A stretch of 10,294 nucleotides of DNA, taken from Armatimonadota bacterium. Lineage in GTDB: Bacteria; Sysuimicrobiota; Sysuimicrobiia; Sysuimicrobiales; Humicultoraceae. Below are positions 3,410-10,294 of the stretch, in pieces; position 1 is the first letter of the stretch; the number at the start of each line of letters is the position of its first letter. The notes beneath the pieces are model-generated. The model did no database searches. It was not told where the DNA came from and saw only the letters and a program-made list of their open reading frames with translations. Both the position numbers and the translations under genes were made by a program. The stretch is taken from NCBI GenBank assembly GCA_037446215.1, contig JBBIJB010000016.1:8292-18585 (forward strand), in the 5' to 3' direction.

Positions 3410-3438
3410 TTGACATGCGAACATTTGTTTGGTATTCT
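3410..3438 (+). promoter_or_regulatory. sigma70/sigmaA promoter of recA
   Basis: TTGACA 3410-3415, 17-bp spacer, TATTCT 3433-3438 with extended -10 TG at 3430-3431. It lies in an AT-rich patch within GC-rich sequence. Confidence 0.85.
3418..3431. promoter_or_regulatory. LexA operator (Gram-positive-type SOS box, GAAC-N4-GTTY)
   Basis: CGAAC-ATTT-GTTTG lies between the -35 and -10 elements of the recA promoter. Confidence 0.85.
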
Positions 3439-4586: not shown

Positions 4587-5234
4587 ATGAGGGTGCGCAC
4601 CCCTGCGGGGAACCCTCGAATCCGCCGTGTAGAGATCGAGGGTGCAGGCGTCTTCACGATCGACGCCGAGGATGCCAGCAGGCTCGGTCTCACAGACCTG
4701 TCCCAGGTCGATGCGCAGACCGCCGAGCGCGTGGCCAGGGTCGCGCTGCTGCGGTCGGCCCGGGCGGCCGCGCTGCGCCTCCTGGACCGCCGTCCCAGGT
4801 CCAGGGCCGAGATCCAAGCCGCGTTGGGGCGCCGAGTCCCGCGGGGGATCGCGGCCGCGGTGGTTGCCGGACTCGCCAGGGAGGGCTGGCTGGACGACGC
4901 CAAGTTCGCGCAGGCCTGGATACGTGATCGCATCGCGCTCCGCCCCATGGGGCGCCGCAGAATAGCCGCCGAACTCCGGAGGCGTGGGGTGCCGGCCCCG
5001 ATCGTGGAGGCGCAGCTCGACGCCCTCCTGCCGCCGGACCGCGAGGAGCAGGAGGCGCAGGCTTCCGCGAGAAGGCGATGGGCGACCATGCGAGGGCTCT
5101 CCCCGGACGCTGCCCGTCGGAGGCTGGCCGGCTGGCTGATGCGCCGAGGCTACTCAGCGGGCGTCGTTGCAGGTGTGCTCAGGGGCATCGACGCCCAGCG
5201 TGATCGGGGAGGGGGTGAGCCCCCTGATGAGTGA
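4587..5234 (+). CDS. recX: Regulatory protein RecX (start uncertain; see findings)
   Basis: AALRLLDRRPRSRAEI, GWLDDAKFA, GRRRIAAELRRRGV and RRLAGWLMRRGYS are RecX helical-repeat motifs. The gene lies directly downstream of recA. Confidence 0.9.
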   Translation: MRVRTPAGNPRIRRVEIEGAGVFTIDAEDASRLGLTDLSQVDAQTAERVARVALLRSARAAALRLLDRRPRSRAEIQAALGRRVPRGIAAAVVAGLAREGWLDDAKFAQAWIRDRIALRPMGRRRIAAELRRRGVPAPIVEAQLDALLPPDREEQEAQASARRRWATMRGLSPDAARRRLAGWLMRRGYSAGVVAGVLRGIDAQRDRGGGEPPDE

Positions 5235-8200
5235 CGCAGGACCTCACGGGATCGGACAGCTCGCCCTGGACCTCTCCGCCCGGGGGCCCGCAGGCGACCC
5301 CCTAGGTCCGGAGGAGCGCACGGTCGAGGGCCTCACCCCCGCGCAGGCTGCTGCCGTAACCCACGGCGAGGGACCGCTGCTGATCGTCGCCGGCGCGGGA
5401 ACCGGAAAGACCACTGTGATAACCCGGAGGATAGCCTGGCTGATCGCCACGCGCCGCGCCAGGCCCTCAGAGATACTTGCCCTGACGTTCACCGACAAGG
5501 CAGCGGCCGAGATGGAGTCGCGGGTTGACGAGCTGGTGCCGTACGGCTACGTGGATGCGTGGATCGGCACATTCCACGCCTTCGGGGACCGTCTCCTGCG
5601 GGAGCAGGCGCTCGAGGCAGGGCTCCAGCCGGACTTCCGGGTCCTCTCACGGCCGGAGCAGTTCATATTCCTGCGCGACCGGCTCTTCCAGATGCCGCTC
5701 GAGCGCTACAGGCCGCTGGGCGACCCTAGCAGATACGTCCATGCCATACTGAGGCTCATCGACCGCGCCAAGGACGAGGACATCTCCCCCGGGGCCTACG
5801 CGGACTACGCAGCGCGCCTTCGCGCATCTGGCGCGGAGGCGGATGGAGCCCCGGCGGGGGAGGGCCGCGAAAGCGAGGCGGCGGCCTCCCACGAGGAGCT
5901 GGCGGCCACGTACGCAGCGTATGAGGCGGCGCTGCGGGTGGCCGGCTGCGCGGACTTCGGAGACCTGATAGCACTGCCTCTGCGACTCCTGAGGGAGCGC
6001 ACTGACATCCTGAGGCGCTACCAGGAGCGGTACCGCTACATCCTCGTTGACGAGTTCCAGGATACCAACCACGCGCAGTTCGAGCTGGTGAAGCTGCTCG
6101 CCTCACCGCACGGCAACGTGACGGTGGTGGGCGACGACGACCAGGCGATCTACAAGTTCCGGGGCGCGGCGATAAGCAACATCCTCGGCTTCTCGACCAC
6201 GTACCCACGGGCCGCCCGGGTCGTGCTGACCGATAACTTCCGGTCGCCGCAGTCGGTACTGGACTCCGCCTACCGGCTCATTCAACACAACAACCCCGAT
6301 CGCCTCGAGGTACGCGAAGGCCTCGACAAGCGCCTGGCGAGCGCGATCGGAGCCGGGCTGCCCGTGGAGCAGACGCAGTTTGCGACGATGAGCGACGAGG
6401 CAGACGCGGTAGCGACGGCGATCGCGGAGCACGTCTCGGCAGGGGGAAGACGGTCCGACTGCGCAATCCTCGTGCGGTCCAACCAGGACGCCGATCCGTT
6501 CCTGCGCGCGCTGAACGTCAGGGGCATCCCGTGGTGGTTCTCGGGAACGAGAGGCCTCTACGATCGTGAGGAGGTCAGGGTCGCGCTGGCGTTCCTGCGC
6601 GTCCTGGCCGATCCCGCGGACAACCTGAGCCTATATTACCTGGGTACCTCGCCGCTCTACCTGGTCGACTCGAAGGACATGGCCCTGGCTCTCGCGCACG
6701 CCAAAAGACGCAACAGGTCGCTGGAGCACACGATTCGCCGGCTCTGGGACTCCCCGGAGGTCGGCGGAGAGATGTCCCCTGAGAGCAGGGCCGCGGTCGG
6801 CAGACTCGCCGAGGATCTGGATGAGATGCGGGCATTGATGCGCCAGCATCCGACGGGCCGTGTCCTCTACGAGTACCTGGTGACCCGCACCGGCTACGTC
6901 CGAAGGCTGGCCACGTCGGAGCAGCCCGGTGACGAGGTACGGGTGGCGAACCTGGCCAGGCTGTTCGACGTCATAGCCAGGCACGGCGCGGTCTCGGTGT
7001 ACGACAGGGTTCCCGAGTTCGTGCGCAGGATGGAGGACCTCATCGCGGCGGGGGACGATCCGCCTTCGCCGCCCCCCGACCCGGAGTTCGACGGCGTTCA
7101 GGTCCTCACCGTCCACAAGGCAAAGGGCCTGGAGTTCCCTCTTGTCTTCATGGTCAGCTGCGTTGCGGACCGCTTCCCACTTCGCAGGCGGGGCGATCTC
7201 CTCGACCTGCCGGACGAGCTCGTGCGTGACCGGGAGGTGCTACCGTCCGGGGACAGCCACCTGCAGGAGGAGAGGAGGCTGTTCTACGTGGGCATGACCC
7301 GCGCCAAGGAGAGGCTGGTGCTGACAGGAGGCCAGGACTACGGGGGGGTAAGACCGCGCAAGATCAGCCGGTTCATCCTGGAGGCCCTGGATCGCCCTTC
7401 GCCAGGGGCGGTGGCAGCCCGCTCGTCTCCGGCAGAGGCCATAGAACGCCATGCTCCGCCTGCGGGGACTGACTCGGTCCTTCCCGGGCTCCTTCCCGCG
7501 CGCGGCACCGTCACCCTCTCGTTCAGGCAGGTGGACGACTACCAGGCATGCCCGCTGAAGTACAAGTACACCCACATCCTCCGCGTACCGCTGCTGCGCG
7601 ACCACAGGGTCGTCTACGGGGCGGCAGTGCACGCGGGTGCCATGGAGTACAACCGGCGCCGGGCGCGCGGCCAGGCGGTGGGCCCGGAAGACCTGATCCG
7701 GGCGTTCGAGAGGGTGTGGGTGTCGGATGGCTTCATCAGCCGCGAGCACGAGGACCGGCGGCTTGCCGAGGGGAGGACAGTGCTGCGCGCTTTCTTCGAC
7801 TACCAGGCCGCGAGCGGAACGGTTCCGACGATGGTGGAGAGCAAGTTCTCGTTCCAAACAGGCGACACGCGCGTTCGCGGAAGATGGGACCGTGTGGATG
7901 TGAGGTCGGCCGGGGGCGAGACAGTGGTAATCGACTTCAAGACCAGCGATGTCAGGACCCAGAAGGATGCCGACCGGCGATCCCGGGAAAGCCTTCAGCT
8001 GTCCATCTACGGGCTCGCCTACGTGAGGCAGTACGGAGCGGTCCCCGACCGGCTGGAGCTGCACTTCCTGAGCCCGCGTGGGGTCCTCGTCGGACGATCG
8101 TCGCCCGCGCCTGAGAGGCTGGAGGAAGCCGAAACCGAGATCGCCGCCGCCTCGGAGGGCATACGCCAGGCCAGGTTCGCGGCCACTCCCGACTACTACC

Positions 8201-8258
8201 GCGCCTGCCGCTACTGCGCCTTGCTTCGATCTGTCCCTACACCGCGGGGAGGGACTAG
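5227..8258 (+). CDS. UvrD/PcrA-family SF1 helicase with C-terminal RecB/AddB-like PD-(D/E)XK Fe-S nuclease; apparent 1-nt frameshift near the 3' end (as read, the frame continues into rmuC to 9444)
   Basis: Helicase motifs: AGAGTGKT, LTFTDKAA, TFHAF, LVDEFQD, VGDDDQAIYKFRGA, NFRS, ILVRSN, TVHKAKGLEF, EERRLFYVGMTRAK. Nuclease motifs: YQACP, GRWDR, IDFKT, QLSIY, CRYC. ATG 5227 overlaps the recX end and follows GGAGGGGG. The -1 frame from 8223 reads ASICPYTAGRD and stops at TAG 8256-8258. Confidence 0.85.
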
Positions 8259-8259
8259 A

Positions 8260-9444
8260 GTGATTGATCTGAACGTACTGGTGGTACTGGCGGTGGCGGC
8301 GGCCCTGGGTGCCGCGGTCGCGGCGGCACTGATCGCGCGGCGGCGGCCCGAGTCCGACTCGGGCATCGCACTGCTCCAGCAACAGGTCGGAGAGCTGCGG
8401 GGGCAGGTGATCAGCAGTCTCGATGGGGCTTCCAGGAACTTGGCCGCGCGCACGGAGGCCTTGGAGGCCCGGATAGACGGACGGATCGAGGCGGTCACGC
8501 GCGCCGTGAACGATCGCTTGGCAGAGAACGCCGAGGCCATGCGCCGCGTCGGTGACGGCCTAGGTCAGCGCCTTGACACAAACCTGCAGGTGGTCGGGCA
8601 GCGCTTCAGCGAGACCTCGGGGATGGTCACAGACGTGCGGGAGAGGCTTAGGGGACTGGAGGAGGCCGCCGGCCGCATCTTCGAGCTGGGCAAGGATCTG
8701 GCCTCCCTCCAGGAGGTGCTCCGCCCGCCCAAGCTGCGGGGCGGCGTGGGTGAGGTCCTGCTGGAGAACCTCCTGCGAAACGGCCTGCCCCAGGGGCAGT
8801 ACGAGATGCAGTGGCGCTTCGCAACAGGAAACACAGTGGACGCCGTCATAAGGCTCGGTGATAGGCTGGTGCCCGTGGACTCGAAGTTCCCCCTGGACGG
8901 GTTCTACGCCATTGCCCGCGCCCAGAGCGATGAGGAGCGGTCGAAGGCGCGCAGGGAGTTCACAAGGCAGGTCGCCGGCCACGTGAAGGCGGTGGCGGAG
9001 AAGTACATCCTCCCGGAGGAGGGAACCTACGACTTCGCCCTGATGTACGTGCCTGCGGAGAGCGTCTACTACGAGGCGGTGGTGCGCGCCGAAGACCCTG
9101 CGGGGCTCTACGGGCAGGCGCTGAGCCAGCGGGTGGTCGTCGTGTCCCCGACCACGTTCTACGCCTACCTCGTGGCCCTGGCCTACGGCCTGAAGGGAAT
9201 GCAGGTCGAGCAGCAGGCGGAGCAGATCCGCGAGGGGCTCGCTCATCTGACCCTGGACATAGAGAGGTTGCGCGATCCCATGGGGAAGCTGGGAGGCCAG
9301 CTCCGCCACGCGCAGAACAACTTCGAGTTGGCCAGGCGGGCCGTGGACCGCTTCGGAGACAGGCTGGCCAACCTGAGCGGCCAGGCGCTTCCCGAGGGCG
9401 GCGGCACTCCTGAGCTTCCCGGGGGAGAGCCTAACGCTCCTTGA
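8260..9444 (+). CDS. rmuC: DNA recombination protein RmuC (N-terminal TM anchor, coiled coil, restriction-endonuclease-like domain)
   Basis: GTG 8260 has SD GGAGG 8248-8252. Hydrophobic N-terminus VLVVLAVAAALGAAVAAALIA, then heptad-rich segment and motifs RGGVGEVLLE, VDAVIRL, VDSKFP, DFALMYVPAESVY and SPTT. Stop is TGA 9442-9444. Confidence 0.9.
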   Translation: MIDLNVLVVLAVAAALGAAVAAALIARRRPESDSGIALLQQQVGELRGQVISSLDGASRNLAARTEALEARIDGRIEAVTRAVNDRLAENAEAMRRVGDGLGQRLDTNLQVVGQRFSETSGMVTDVRERLRGLEEAAGRIFELGKDLASLQEVLRPPKLRGGVGEVLLENLLRNGLPQGQYEMQWRFATGNTVDAVIRLGDRLVPVDSKFPLDGFYAIARAQSDEERSKARREFTRQVAGHVKAVAEKYILPEEGTYDFALMYVPAESVYYEAVVRAEDPAGLYGQALSQRVVVVSPTTFYAYLVALAYGLKGMQVEQQAEQIREGLAHLTLDIERLRDPMGKLGGQLRHAQNNFELARRAVDRFGDRLANLSGQALPEGGGTPELPGGEPNAP

Positions 9445-9471
9445 CAGCGCCGCGGCCGCCGGTGGTATTAT
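9441..9471 (+). promoter_or_regulatory. Probable sigma70/sigmaA promoter for valS
   Basis: TTGACA 9441-9446 overlaps the rmuC stop; extended -10 TGgTATTAT at 9463-9471. The 19-bp spacer is longer than optimal. Predicted +1 is near A9478. Confidence 0.6.
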
Positions 9472-9477
9472 CTACCC

Positions 9478-9602
9478 ACGTCATCTGCCGGGACTCGCCC
9501 GTTACCGCGAGCAGAGTGCCCGCCCTCGGTCCACAGGGGCCGGCGATCAGGGTGGTACTGCGGAGCGCCGCTTCGCCCTTGGCGAGGCGGCGTGTTGCAT
9601 TT
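9478..9602 (+). ncRNA. T-box riboswitch leader of valS (truncated/atypical)
   Basis: T-box motif GATCAGGGTGGTACTGCG at 9545-9562. Antiterminator: CAGGG/CCTTG, bulge TGGTACT, GCGGAGC/GCTTCGC. CCCGTTA (9498-9504) sits in a IIA/B pseudoknot, followed by AGAGTG (9513-9518) and Stem III (~9521-9545). The element lies upstream of an aminoacyl-tRNA synthetase gene. Confidence 0.8.
9566..9602 (+). terminator. T-box terminator hairpin, mutually exclusive with the antiterminator
   Basis: CGCCGCTTCGCC-CTT-GGCGAGGCGGCG forms a 12-bp stem with one G-U pair, followed by a weak U-tract TGTTGCATTT. Confidence 0.7.
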
Positions 9603-9616
9603 CGAGGAGGGTCCGC

Positions 9617-10294
9617 ATGAGCGAGGAGAGCGGGAGGCAGCCAGCGCAGGCCGATCTTGGGCCGGGTGGGTCCAGGGAGCGGGCGGCGCCCTACGATCCG
9701 CTGAAGGTTGAACCGGCCCGGTACGCACAGTGGCTCCAGAGCGGGCTGTTCGGCGCCCCGGTCGATCCATCGAGGACGCCTCACACGATAATGATGCCGC
9801 TGCCCAACATAACCGGCACGCTCCACATGGGGCACGCTCTCAACCACACGATCCAGGACCTTCTGACGCGTTGGAAGCGAATGGCGGGCTACAACGCGAT
9901 GTGGCTGCCGGGCACCGACCATGCCAGCATCGGCACGCACGTCGTCATGGAGAAGGAACTGGCGCGCCAGGGACTGACCAGGTTCGATCTGGGCAGGGAG
10001 AAGTTCCTGGAGTTCGCGTGGGAGTGGAAGGAGAAGTACGGCGGGCTGATCTACGGCCAGATACGCAGGATGGGCTCCGGGTGCGACTGGGGCCGCGTGA
10101 CGTTCACCATGGATCCCGGGTACTACGATGCGGTGATTGAGTGCTTCCTGAGGCTCTACGAGAAGGGGTACATCTACTACGGCAAGCGTATGATCAACTG
10201 GTGTCCCAAGGACCTGACTAGTGTGTCCGACCTGGAGATCGACCACCAGACGGTGAACAGCCACCTCTGGTATGTCAGGTACAGGGGGGCGGAG
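9617..10294 (+). CDS. valS: Valine--tRNA ligase, 5' part (runs off the window, so absent from the ORF track)
   Basis: Manual translation: MSEESG...YDPLKVE...MPLPNITGTLHMGHALN (HIGH motif)...RWKRMAGYNAMWLPGTDHASI...DLGREKFLEFAWEWKEKYGG...GSGCDW...FTMD...INWCP...SDLEI. SD GAGGAGG at 9604-9610. Confidence 0.96.
   Translation, partial: MSEESGRQPAQADLGPGGSRERAAPYDPLKVEPARYAQWLQSGLFGAPVDPSRTPHTIMMPLPNITGTLHMGHALNHTIQDLLTRWKRMAGYNAMWLPGTDHASIGTHVVMEKELARQGLTRFDLGREKFLEFAWEWKEKYGGLIYGQIRRMGSGCDWGRVTFTMDPGYYDAVIECFLRLYEKGYIYYGKRMINWCPKDLTSVSDLEIDHQTVNSHLWYVRYRGAE

Follow-up and report, generated by a model that had tools for sequence, protein, structure and literature searches.

The valS leader in this genome, which belongs to a subsurface Armatimonadota genus, is most plausibly a 5'-truncated, decaying derivative of its family's canonical transcriptional valS T-box, acting as a largely tRNA-blind, leaky attenuator; we put the probability of this reading at roughly two in three. 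The 3' half of the T-box is intact ahead of valS, at positions 9489-9603 of the window (the whole stretch of 10,294 nucleotides analysed here, all features being on the forward strand), and is homologous to the full T-boxes of relatives. We read the leader as a deletion derivative because 26 of the 29 relatives' valS loci have full-length T-boxes with the Stem I specifier GAAC-GUC-R, and because the same -10 box precedes valS in other members of the genus.

Results

The gene valS (valyl-tRNA synthetase) starts at ATG 9617 and leaves the window at its end, so that only its 5' part (9617-10294) is covered. It is an essential gene, and the source genome (G000) holds a single copy, a second match lying on a redundant contig (C7). 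Its Shine-Dalgarno sequence, GGAGG (9606-9610), lies outside the terminator hairpin. Upstream is an open reading frame of 1425 aa (5167-9444) with UvrD helicase, PD-(D/E)XK nuclease and RmuC domains, whose TGA stop (9442-9444) overlaps the candidate -35 hexamer; in other members of the genus RmuC has an open frame of its own (375-439 aa), located 25-30 kb away from valS. These genomes have lon 5' of valS, but in G000 lon is followed by an RNase Y-like gene. Between the upstream frame and the leader, the scan recognised no terminator except a weak 5-pair hairpin.

The original prediction placed CGGG at 9489-9492 and CCCG at 9498-9501, CTCG at 9494-9497 and CGAG at 9508-9511, AGAGTG at 9513-9518, a GUC at 9480-9482 and a small hairpin at 9462-9479, and all of these coordinates agree with the sequence. 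The first two pairs of segments form Stems IIA and IIB of a pseudoknot (9489-9511) that includes an F-box-like CCGTTA (9499-9504). Both stems are fully paired here (4/4 each); across 26 leaders, 25 form every IIA pair and 19 every IIB pair, the latter with 12 pair combinations. IIB covaries among relatives, and covariation exceeded all 500 shuffles and all slid controls. The pseudoknot is followed by the purine string GAGUG (9514-9518), an RRRxG motif as defined in the review PMC7583486 (cited throughout from excerpts), and by the Stem III hairpin at about 9517-9545 (-17.2 kcal/mol), both placed by fold and alignment. GAUCA then precedes helix A1, as in several full relatives.

The antiterminator (9549-9580) consists of helix A1 (9549-9552 with 9577-9580), the bulge (9553-9559) and helix A2 (9560-9565 with 9571-9576), and is 93% paired. 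Its bulge reads UGGUACU, as against UGGUACC in 25 of 25 aligned relatives; T9559 thus stands for a C that is invariant in these relatives and present in the nine other T-boxes of G000, and the excerpted review states of the bulge ACC that it 'stabilizes discriminator structure' (PMC7583486). The UGGU of the bulge matches A73 of all three tRNA-Val genes, as originally proposed, a correct but unspecific fit given that 16 of the 32 tRNAs detected in G000 carry A73. The terminator (9565-9603), found by scan and fold, comprises a hairpin of 13 pairs (9565-9593), a possible 5-pair extension (9559-9563 with 9595-9599) and an interrupted U-tract, GUUGCAUUUC. It overlaps the 3' strand of the antiterminator, the two being mutually exclusive, and is 86% paired with seven covarying pairs; folding gives -32.0 kcal/mol for the terminator as against -14.5 kcal/mol for the antiterminator.

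A profile built from the 3' halves of 26 relatives' valS T-boxes matched 9491-9602 over profile positions 2-112 (E=5.8e-19), and the G000 3' half aligns end to end with the relatives' valS T-boxes. The corresponding Stem I-II profile matched nothing in the window, where its best E was 1.5 (at 3428), although it detects four other G000 T-boxes at E<=0.0012, bearing out the earlier statement that neither Stem I nor Stem II is recognisable. Only 11 nt separate the predicted transcription start from the pseudoknot, and the K-turn and specifier loop of a Stem I are absent from them. Stem II with its S-turn, an optional part of the T-box family, is likewise absent, and is present in all full valS relatives. 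No orphan valS Stem I-II half was found elsewhere in the G000 genome.

A partial, 3'-only match to the Rfam T-box model had been expected. In fact RF00230 gave no match whatsoever, whether at its gathering threshold (93 bits), at E<=10 on 9200-9700 or for the valS leader in a whole-genome search. This threshold is harsh for the clade, since eight of the nine other G000 T-boxes also score below 93 bits. Weak matches to other Rfam models on 9521-9604 (CC1840, mir-43_2 and others) lay far under their gathering scores and merely reflect the Stem III and terminator hairpins. A second candidate for a Stem I-less T-box, ahead of leuS (contig C109), was rejected: the G000 copy merely ends at the contig edge, and the relatives' leuS leader is a complete Leu T-box whose Stem III has a tRNA-Ala gene nested in it.

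A near-consensus promoter, as judged from sequence, would start transcription near 9478. It comprises a candidate -35 hexamer, TTGACA (9441-9446), a 19-nt spacer and a candidate extended -10 element, TGGTATTAT (9463-9471), recognised by comparison with other members of the genus. The promoter put forward in the original prediction was not called by a consensus scan, which allowed spacers of 16-18 nt, but the 12-mer GGTGGTATTATC (9461-9472) recurs letter for letter as the -10 region of the valS promoters of other genus members. Since the MAFFT alignment (A2) misplaced the G000 promoter, the homology is taken from direct reading of the identical 12-mer and not from alignment columns.

The predicted 5' tail of the transcript, ACGUCAUCUGC (9478-9488, 11 nt), coincides with the deletion junction region and holds GUC at 9480-9482, followed by A9483. 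Three of four folds starting at 9478 leave it unpaired, and in the full-leader fold its first six bases are unpaired and its last five paired. The chance probability of GUC followed by a purine in an 11-nt tail is 0.07-0.08, and that of any GUN followed by a purine 0.22. The GUC may be a chance occurrence or a remnant of the old specifier, the latter because ACGUCA matches the specifier context AACGUCA of the genus leaders L017, L021 and L024.

Twenty-five of the 26 full-length relatives cover the profile in full and one falls slightly under the threshold. A truncated leader of the G000 type was present in no other locus among the 189 examined (L011-L199, three partly overlapping sets), which were classed as 59 full, 10 partial or at a contig edge and 120 undetected by the clade profiles. 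The partial or edge class counts two loci twice (L013 and L015, again as L124 and L128), and these together with L021 and L043 represent four further deletion forms; the other four loci (L028, L044, L059 and L134) are edge or threshold cases. Loss has thus recurred in the genus, five of its nine distinct leaders (G000, G003, G006, G007 and L043) bearing different deletions. Promoter and terminator are kept in all five, and the four deletions other than that of G000 remove the antiterminator bulge, so that G000 is the only form sparing the whole discriminator. G003, G006 and G007 each have one open valS frame of 905-965 aa. Because four lineages have lost the antiterminator and kept an intact single-copy valS, tRNA control of this gene looks dispensable in the genus. 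The metagenome and genome contig scans returned no relative above about 85% identity in the ValRS N-terminus, and the G000 deletion is therefore undatable, but the intact look of the retained half may point to a recent event.

Discussion

One or two deletion events would have taken out everything between a point about 3 nt past the transcription start and the 3' end of Stem II. With this segment the entire tRNA-decoding module would have gone: K-turn, specifier loop and distal platform, along with the S-turn of Stem II. The parts left are the promoter, the pseudoknot IIA/B, the purine string of Stem III, and the antiterminator with its terminator. Stem I is called 'obligate' in the excerpts of PMC7583486, which add that truncated Stem I's bind tRNA barely detectably in the absence of Stem II. 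Without Stem I, tRNA-Val would presumably not be recruited to the nascent RNA via its anticodon, and the response to tRNA would be lost. The terminator, being much more stable than the antiterminator, should then be the default fold. Such a strong default terminator needs explaining ahead of an essential, single-copy gene, and we assume that valS is expressed, driven by the near-consensus promoter, because polymerase constitutively reads through a hairpin whose U-tract is poor, the element probably being on its way to being lost.

The original prediction had considered the leader to be either an ultra-minimal T-box whose specifier is single-stranded, a general sensor of uncharged tRNA that has no specifier, or a decayed element. 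The full T-boxes at most of the relatives' valS loci, a finding that the prediction itself had named as refuting, speak against the two novel readings, and the decayed element is thus the option supported. The single-stranded specifier finds no comparative backing; the relatives carry their GUC in Stem I. Counting against decay are the structural perfection of the retained half (pseudoknot, purine string, Stem III, A1, A2 and UGGU), the standing of G000 as the one deletion form with a whole discriminator, and the GUC and purine in the 5' tail.

It is unlikely that the leader still works as a sensor through its discriminator, with Stem III and the antiterminator binding, with low affinity and no reading of the anticodon, the free 3' ends of uncharged tRNAs that carry A73, giving a weak general boost to valS read-through. 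The leader has every discriminator feature that the review names (RRRxG, Stem III, a UGGN bulge, A1 and A2), half of the detected tRNAs carry A73, the deletion is the sole one in the genus to spare the discriminator, and a co-crystal of a discriminator with tRNA but without Stem I exists (6PMO; legend of Figure 2 in PMC7583486). Against this, the excerpted review holds that transcriptional T-boxes need fast capture of tRNA by Stem I, and that disabling the distal platform alone abolishes read-through in vivo (PMC7583486). In the two-step model, moreover, anticodon binding promotes folding of the discriminator (PMC12647780). The bulge also has ACU in place of the invariant ACC. Sensing is evidently unneeded for viability, given that four genus members live without any antiterminator, and support from conservation is nil. 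The broader claim of a natural T-box that lacks Stems I and II, still controls the single-copy valS and senses uncharged A73 tRNA 3' ends, possibly aided by the GUC beside the pseudoknot, is in our judgement quite unlikely.

Very improbable is an ultra-minimal Val T-box in which the single-stranded 5' GUC-A (9480-9483) pairs with the anticodon of tRNA-Val(GAC) beside the pseudoknot and so replaces Stem I. The triplet lies in a mostly unpaired tail, tRNA-Val(GAC) is present in the genome, and ACGUCA equals the specifier context of three genus leaders. However, the chance probability of a GUC followed by a purine in such a tail is 0.07-0.08, and the junction of CACGT, from the start region of other genus members, with the downstream sequence explains the letters equally well. 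The excerpts of PMC7583486 report that the affinity for tRNA is barely detectable even in a short, structured Stem I lacking Stem II, and list the pseudoknot, which serves for docking Stems I and II, with 'no known partner'. The form is also unique to one genome among all loci examined.

An artefact of assembly or library preparation, for example polymerase template switching across GC-rich structure in an organism that has a full T-box, is highly improbable. Five different deletions in one structured leader of about 70% G+C across related MAGs are unusual, and all four runs supporting the G000 junction come from one study. Nonetheless, a redundant 2358-bp contig, 99.8% identical, carries the same leader, so that the same junction stands on two assembly contigs differing at 0.2%. 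Logan per-run contigs also span it (X2, 9406-9750 with 0 differences; X3, 9250-9552; X4, 9314-9553), with no loose end or alternative joint, and since they derive from three further samples, the junction did not arise in assembly. By our reading of the alignment, the microhomologies are 3-5 nt, far under assembler k-mer sizes, and the G003-type junction recurs in an independent run contig (X4 record 9). Finally, a decoding domain further upstream, in the 3' end of the RmuC-domain frame and used on a longer transcript, is scarcely credible: read-through transcription is possible because the gap before the leader has only the weak hairpin, but neither RF00230 nor the clade Stem I-II profile matched nearby and no conserved folded Stem I with a Val specifier was found upstream of 9441.

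If the leader is only a decaying relic, its value is evolutionary, as one of five independent, apparently recent deletions eroding the valS T-box in one genus. That all five forms keep a promoter and a terminator hairpin ahead of an essential gene suggests that the 'terminator' must either leak or have some other function. The leader is also a natural construct for asking whether a T-box discriminator can function in the cell without Stem I; should it do so, it would be a sensor of tRNA charging lacking the stem that decodes the anticodon and that is regarded in the field as obligate. Rfam-based annotation misses such T-box remnants entirely.

Compared with the canonical valS T-boxes of the family (RF00230), the leader shares the -10 box, the IIA/B pseudoknot with its F-box, GAGUG, Stem III, the T-box sequence, a nearly identical terminator (GAGCGCCGCTTCGCCCTTGGCGAG..CGGCG) and the downstream valS, but it differs in lacking Stems I and II, in its ACU bulge and in having no RF00230 score. 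In the literature searched, which lay mostly outside subscription journals, we found no report of a natural Stem I-less T-box leader. The actinobacterial 'ultrashort' ileS T-boxes are similar in their naturally shortened decoding domain and in keeping the IIA/B pseudoknot and discriminator; as described in the excerpts of PMC7583486, they have a short Stem I, which includes the specifier loop and K-turn, and a Stem II with S-turn, and regulate translation (Sherwood et al., 2015). The G000 leader, in contrast, has neither stem, and its hairpin leaves the Shine-Dalgarno sequence uncovered. Two short T-boxes elsewhere in G000 (C51 and C112) match RF00230 over all 219 model positions with 46-50 bits, and apparently retain a small 5' hairpin. 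Glycine T-boxes of the glyQS type are a precedent for the natural loss of whole T-box domains, as their long Stem I is retained while Stem II and the IIA/B pseudoknot are naturally missing (PMC7583486, PMC4574755, both in excerpt), but the loss is the opposite one, the G000 leader having dropped Stems I and II and kept IIA/B. Closest to what remains in G000, Stem III and antiterminator without Stem I, are laboratory discriminator-only constructs such as that of Geobacillus kaustophilus glyQ co-crystallized with tRNA (6PMO; Li et al., 2019, as listed in the excerpts of PMC7583486), yet these are engineered fragments used at high concentration, whereas the G000 leader is a natural one that stands ahead of its gene.

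Results

The valS leader (9441-9616) belongs to genome G000, in which the window occupies positions 8292-18585 of contig C16. It lies between a 1425-aa open reading frame with UvrD-helicase, PD-(D/E)XK and RmuC domains (5167-9444, forward strand) and valS itself (forward strand, ATG at 9617; Pfam tRNA-synt_1, E=2.6e-52). In 5 relatives the homologue of RmuC stands alone as an open frame of 375-471 aa; the uninterrupted G000 frame could reflect a true fusion, the loss of a stop codon or an error in sequencing. Every motif of the original prediction was re-read in the window sequence at the coordinates claimed: pseudoknot helices IIA (CGGG 9489-9492 with CCCG 9498-9501) and IIB (CTCG 9494-9497 with CGAG 9508-9511), AGAGTG (9513-9518), the T-box core GGGTGGTACTGCGG (9550-9563) and GTC followed by A (9480-9482). 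A hairpin scan placed the terminator hairpin, of 13 pairs, at 9565-9593.

The expected 3'-only partial Rfam match did not materialise: no T-box match was returned for the window at the gathering score, or for 9200-9700 even at E<=10, and the valS leader was absent from a whole-genome search of G000 with the T-box model RF00230, which listed 9 other candidates. Two profiles were built on 26 relatives' valS leaders. That of the 3' half matched 9491-9602 across profile positions 2-112 (E=5.8e-19); that of the Stem I-II half, which does recover 4 other G000 T-boxes (E<=0.0012), found nothing near the leader (best in window E=1.5, at 3428).

We sought valS in 40 relatives and fetched 29 loci (L011-L039); the relatives with names are Armatimonadota MAGs. 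Direct reading found a full-length T-box before valS in 26 of the 29, the 5' half comprising the K-turn start, Stem I AG and GGUG boxes, a specifier region GAAC-GUC-R and Stem II, and the 3' half the IIA/B pseudoknot as in G000, Stem III, TGGTACCGCG and a terminator that hardly varies. Unpublished genomes G015 (L030) and G024 (L025) supply 2 of the 26 alignment and profile rows, and no claim hangs on them alone. The leader had been proposed to be ultra-minimal, specifier-less or decayed; with full T-boxes in these relatives the last option stood and the others lost ground. Classification by profile coverage of a wider valS collection (L011-L199, three partly overlapping sets) put 59 loci in the full class and 10 in the partial or contig-edge class; the other 120, mostly from distant organisms, went undetected. 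The 10 include duplicates (L013 = L124, L015 = L128), four real deletion forms (L013, L015, L021, L043) and edge, insertion or threshold cases (L028, L044, L059, L134); the G000 form, with the 3' half intact and the 5' half gone, is in none of them. At locus L129 (Ca. Fervidifonticultor octavus), whose contig stops 189 nt upstream of valS, unrelated DNA stands where its own closest relative, L019, has the T-box terminator, which may reflect an insertion or further loss.

Pairing in the G000 pseudoknot is complete (IIA 4/4, IIB 4/4); of 26 leaders, 25 pair IIA in full and 19 pair IIB in full, the latter helix occurring in 12 different combinations. On A1, the alignment of relatives' valS T-boxes, pseudoknot and terminator were 87.9% paired with both-sided changes at 10 pairs, and their covariation was stronger than in any of 500 shuffles or any slid control. 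The antiterminator was 93.1% paired, against 45-78% when slid, its conservation being too high for covariation. Of the discriminator, G000 retains the RRRxG string GAGUG, the Stem III fold and the purines ahead of helix A1. Its bulge reads UGGUACU, the last position being C in 25/25 aligned relatives and in the 9 other G000 T-boxes; the bulge ACC trinucleotide 'stabilizes discriminator structure', according to PMC7583486. The terminator may extend by 5 more pairs, one of them a U-A pair contributed by the bulge U. Folding predicts -32.0 kcal/mol for the terminator against -14.5 kcal/mol for the antiterminator, and the U-tract GUUGCAUUUC is interrupted in G000, likewise in relatives. Alignment A1 also showed that the terminator sequence is unusually invariant between genera, and that the helix A2 pair adjoining the bulge is G-C in the family's valS T-boxes (..ACC-GCGGAG/CUUCGC-CC.., columns 119-135), unlike the G-U wobble of the general consensus, to which the cited T-box review assigns the primary role in sensing the aminoacyl group sterically.

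Ten genus-level leaders aligned from promoter to start codon represented 9 distinct lineages (L045 has the G002 form), four with full-length leaders (G001, G002, G004, G005) and five with mutually different deletions. Stems I and II are missing in G000. G006 (L021) has lost the segment that runs from Stem II to the T-box, and G003 (L013), G007 (L015) and the metagenome contig L043 have lost nearly all that separates the K-turn region from the T-box. Junctions, read by eye from the alignment, show 3-5 nt microhomologies, and the G003-type junction recurs in X4 record 9, an independent run contig. In G003, G006, G007 and L043 the antiterminator bulge is destroyed, with promoter, terminator hairpin (invariant columns) and Shine-Dalgarno retained; valS is a single open frame of 905-965 aa in each of the first three. 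Flanks are near-identical between deleted and full forms (G003 versus G004, L043 versus G005), so that the deletions look recent. Antiterminator-destroying deletions before an open, single valS suggest that tRNA-dependent antitermination of this gene would be dispensable in the genus, at least in the short term, and that the hairpin could not be a tight terminator.

In genus mates lon stands upstream of valS, whose promoter has a -10 region, GGTGGTATTATC, identical to window 9461-9472; in G001, G002 and G006, rmuC and valS are convergent with 25-30 kb between them. The lon gene of G000 is on another contig, followed by an RNase Y-like gene. From these gene orders we infer a rearrangement in G000 that put the valS promoter behind the RmuC-domain frame. 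Within the leader there is a separate deletion, which begins a few bases past the start and reaches as far as the 3' end of Stem II. No orphan 5' half (Stem I-II) of a valS T-box was found elsewhere in the G000 genome.

Discussion

Sequence comparison makes the G000 leader a homologue and a descendant of a canonical valS T-box. It lacks the decoding feature that defines the T-box family, and is probably a degenerate variant whose likeliest function, at a probability of about 0.68, would be that of a tRNA-blind, leaky attenuator in decay. According to PMC7583486, Stem I is the 'obligate' decoding domain, Stem II is optional and the discriminator essential; disabling the Stem I distal platform alone costs up to 60-fold in affinity and eliminates in vivo read-through, and without Stem II tRNA binding by truncated Stem I's is barely detectable. 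The review describes the pseudoknot as a geometric hub that has 'no known partner'. PMC12647780 supports a model of two steps: the anticodon is bound first, and this binding promotes folding of the discriminator. No natural Stem I-less T-box was found in the literature searched, which took in few subscription journals.

The main rival, in which the intact discriminator would sense acceptor ends weakly and without specificity, is unlikely though of some weight. A discriminator-tRNA co-crystal is known, and tRNA binding by the antiterminator requires Stem III (PMC7583486). The tRNA-Val species of G000 (anticodons GAC, UAC and CAC) each have A73 and an encoded CCA, bearing out the earlier remark that UGGU fits tRNA-Val A73; the bulge gives no Val specificity, because A73 occurs in 16/32 tRNAs detected in G000.

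We consider a Val-specific, single-stranded specifier improbable. The chance of GUC plus purine in the 11-nt tail is 0.07-0.08, and that of any GUN plus purine 0.22. The tail, CACGUCAUCUG, could be the genus mates' start-proximal CACGU joined to the Stem II end (..CUGCCGGG), or the product of two successive deletions, the first at an ACGU microhomology and sparing the old specifier ACGUCA.

Slightly less probable still is that the organism has a full T-box and the deletion was made by assembly or library. Contig C7 of the same assembly (2358 bp) is 99.8% identical across 2134 bases, with a leader identical in form, and Logan per-run contigs from 3 other samples span the upstream-ORF end, promoter and pseudoknot (X2 record 5, 9406-9750 with 0 differences; X3 record 6, 9250-9552; X4 record 8, 9314-9553), with no joints or loose ends at the deletion junction. 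All 4 runs are of one study, X1 possibly being the source sample; we regard the truncation as real, with a small residual risk of a systematic artefact of the libraries. A decoding domain encoded upstream of the leader is the least credible reading.

The G000 leader matters mainly because it belongs to a naturally occurring series of deletions and offers a test construct made by nature. In G003, G006, G007 and L043, valS would have to be expressed from behind a terminator hairpin that no antiterminator opposes.

Other T-boxes were noticed. The G000 leuS leader (L200/L201; about C109:6740-6906, minus strand) is cut by the contig end; relatives' leuS leaders L207 (G001), L227 (G030; specifier CUC) and L228 (G018) are full Leu T-boxes. 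These leuS T-boxes score 52-76 bits with RF00230, short of the 93 bits required for gathering. In the leuS T-box Stem III loop, an insertion of ~134 nt carries a bona fide tRNA-Ala(GGC) gene (G3:U70, encoded CCA), an arrangement shared by at least 4 genomes from 2 families; no tRNA was present at the leuS loci of the 26 other relatives. The leuS loci L202, L203 and L206, read individually, had no T-box motif within 420 nt upstream, and regex matches at L211 and L225 were rejected as lying inside coding sequence. At G000:C28:10007-10502 (minus strand), tRNA-Val(GAC) lies ~150 nt upstream of a T-box with bulge UGGA and a probable Thr specifier ACC, which precedes a small lipoprotein-like ORF. 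Two T-box candidates of ~150 nt precede a threonine-synthase-like gene (G000:C51:82-232, plus strand) and proS (G000:C112:6236-6384, minus strand), the latter with a doubtful ARAGORN tRNA-Ile call inside it (C112:6280-6354). Both seem to retain only a small 5' hairpin, with candidate loop specifier ACA or CCC by eye, and recall the actinobacterial 'ultrashort' Stem I forms.
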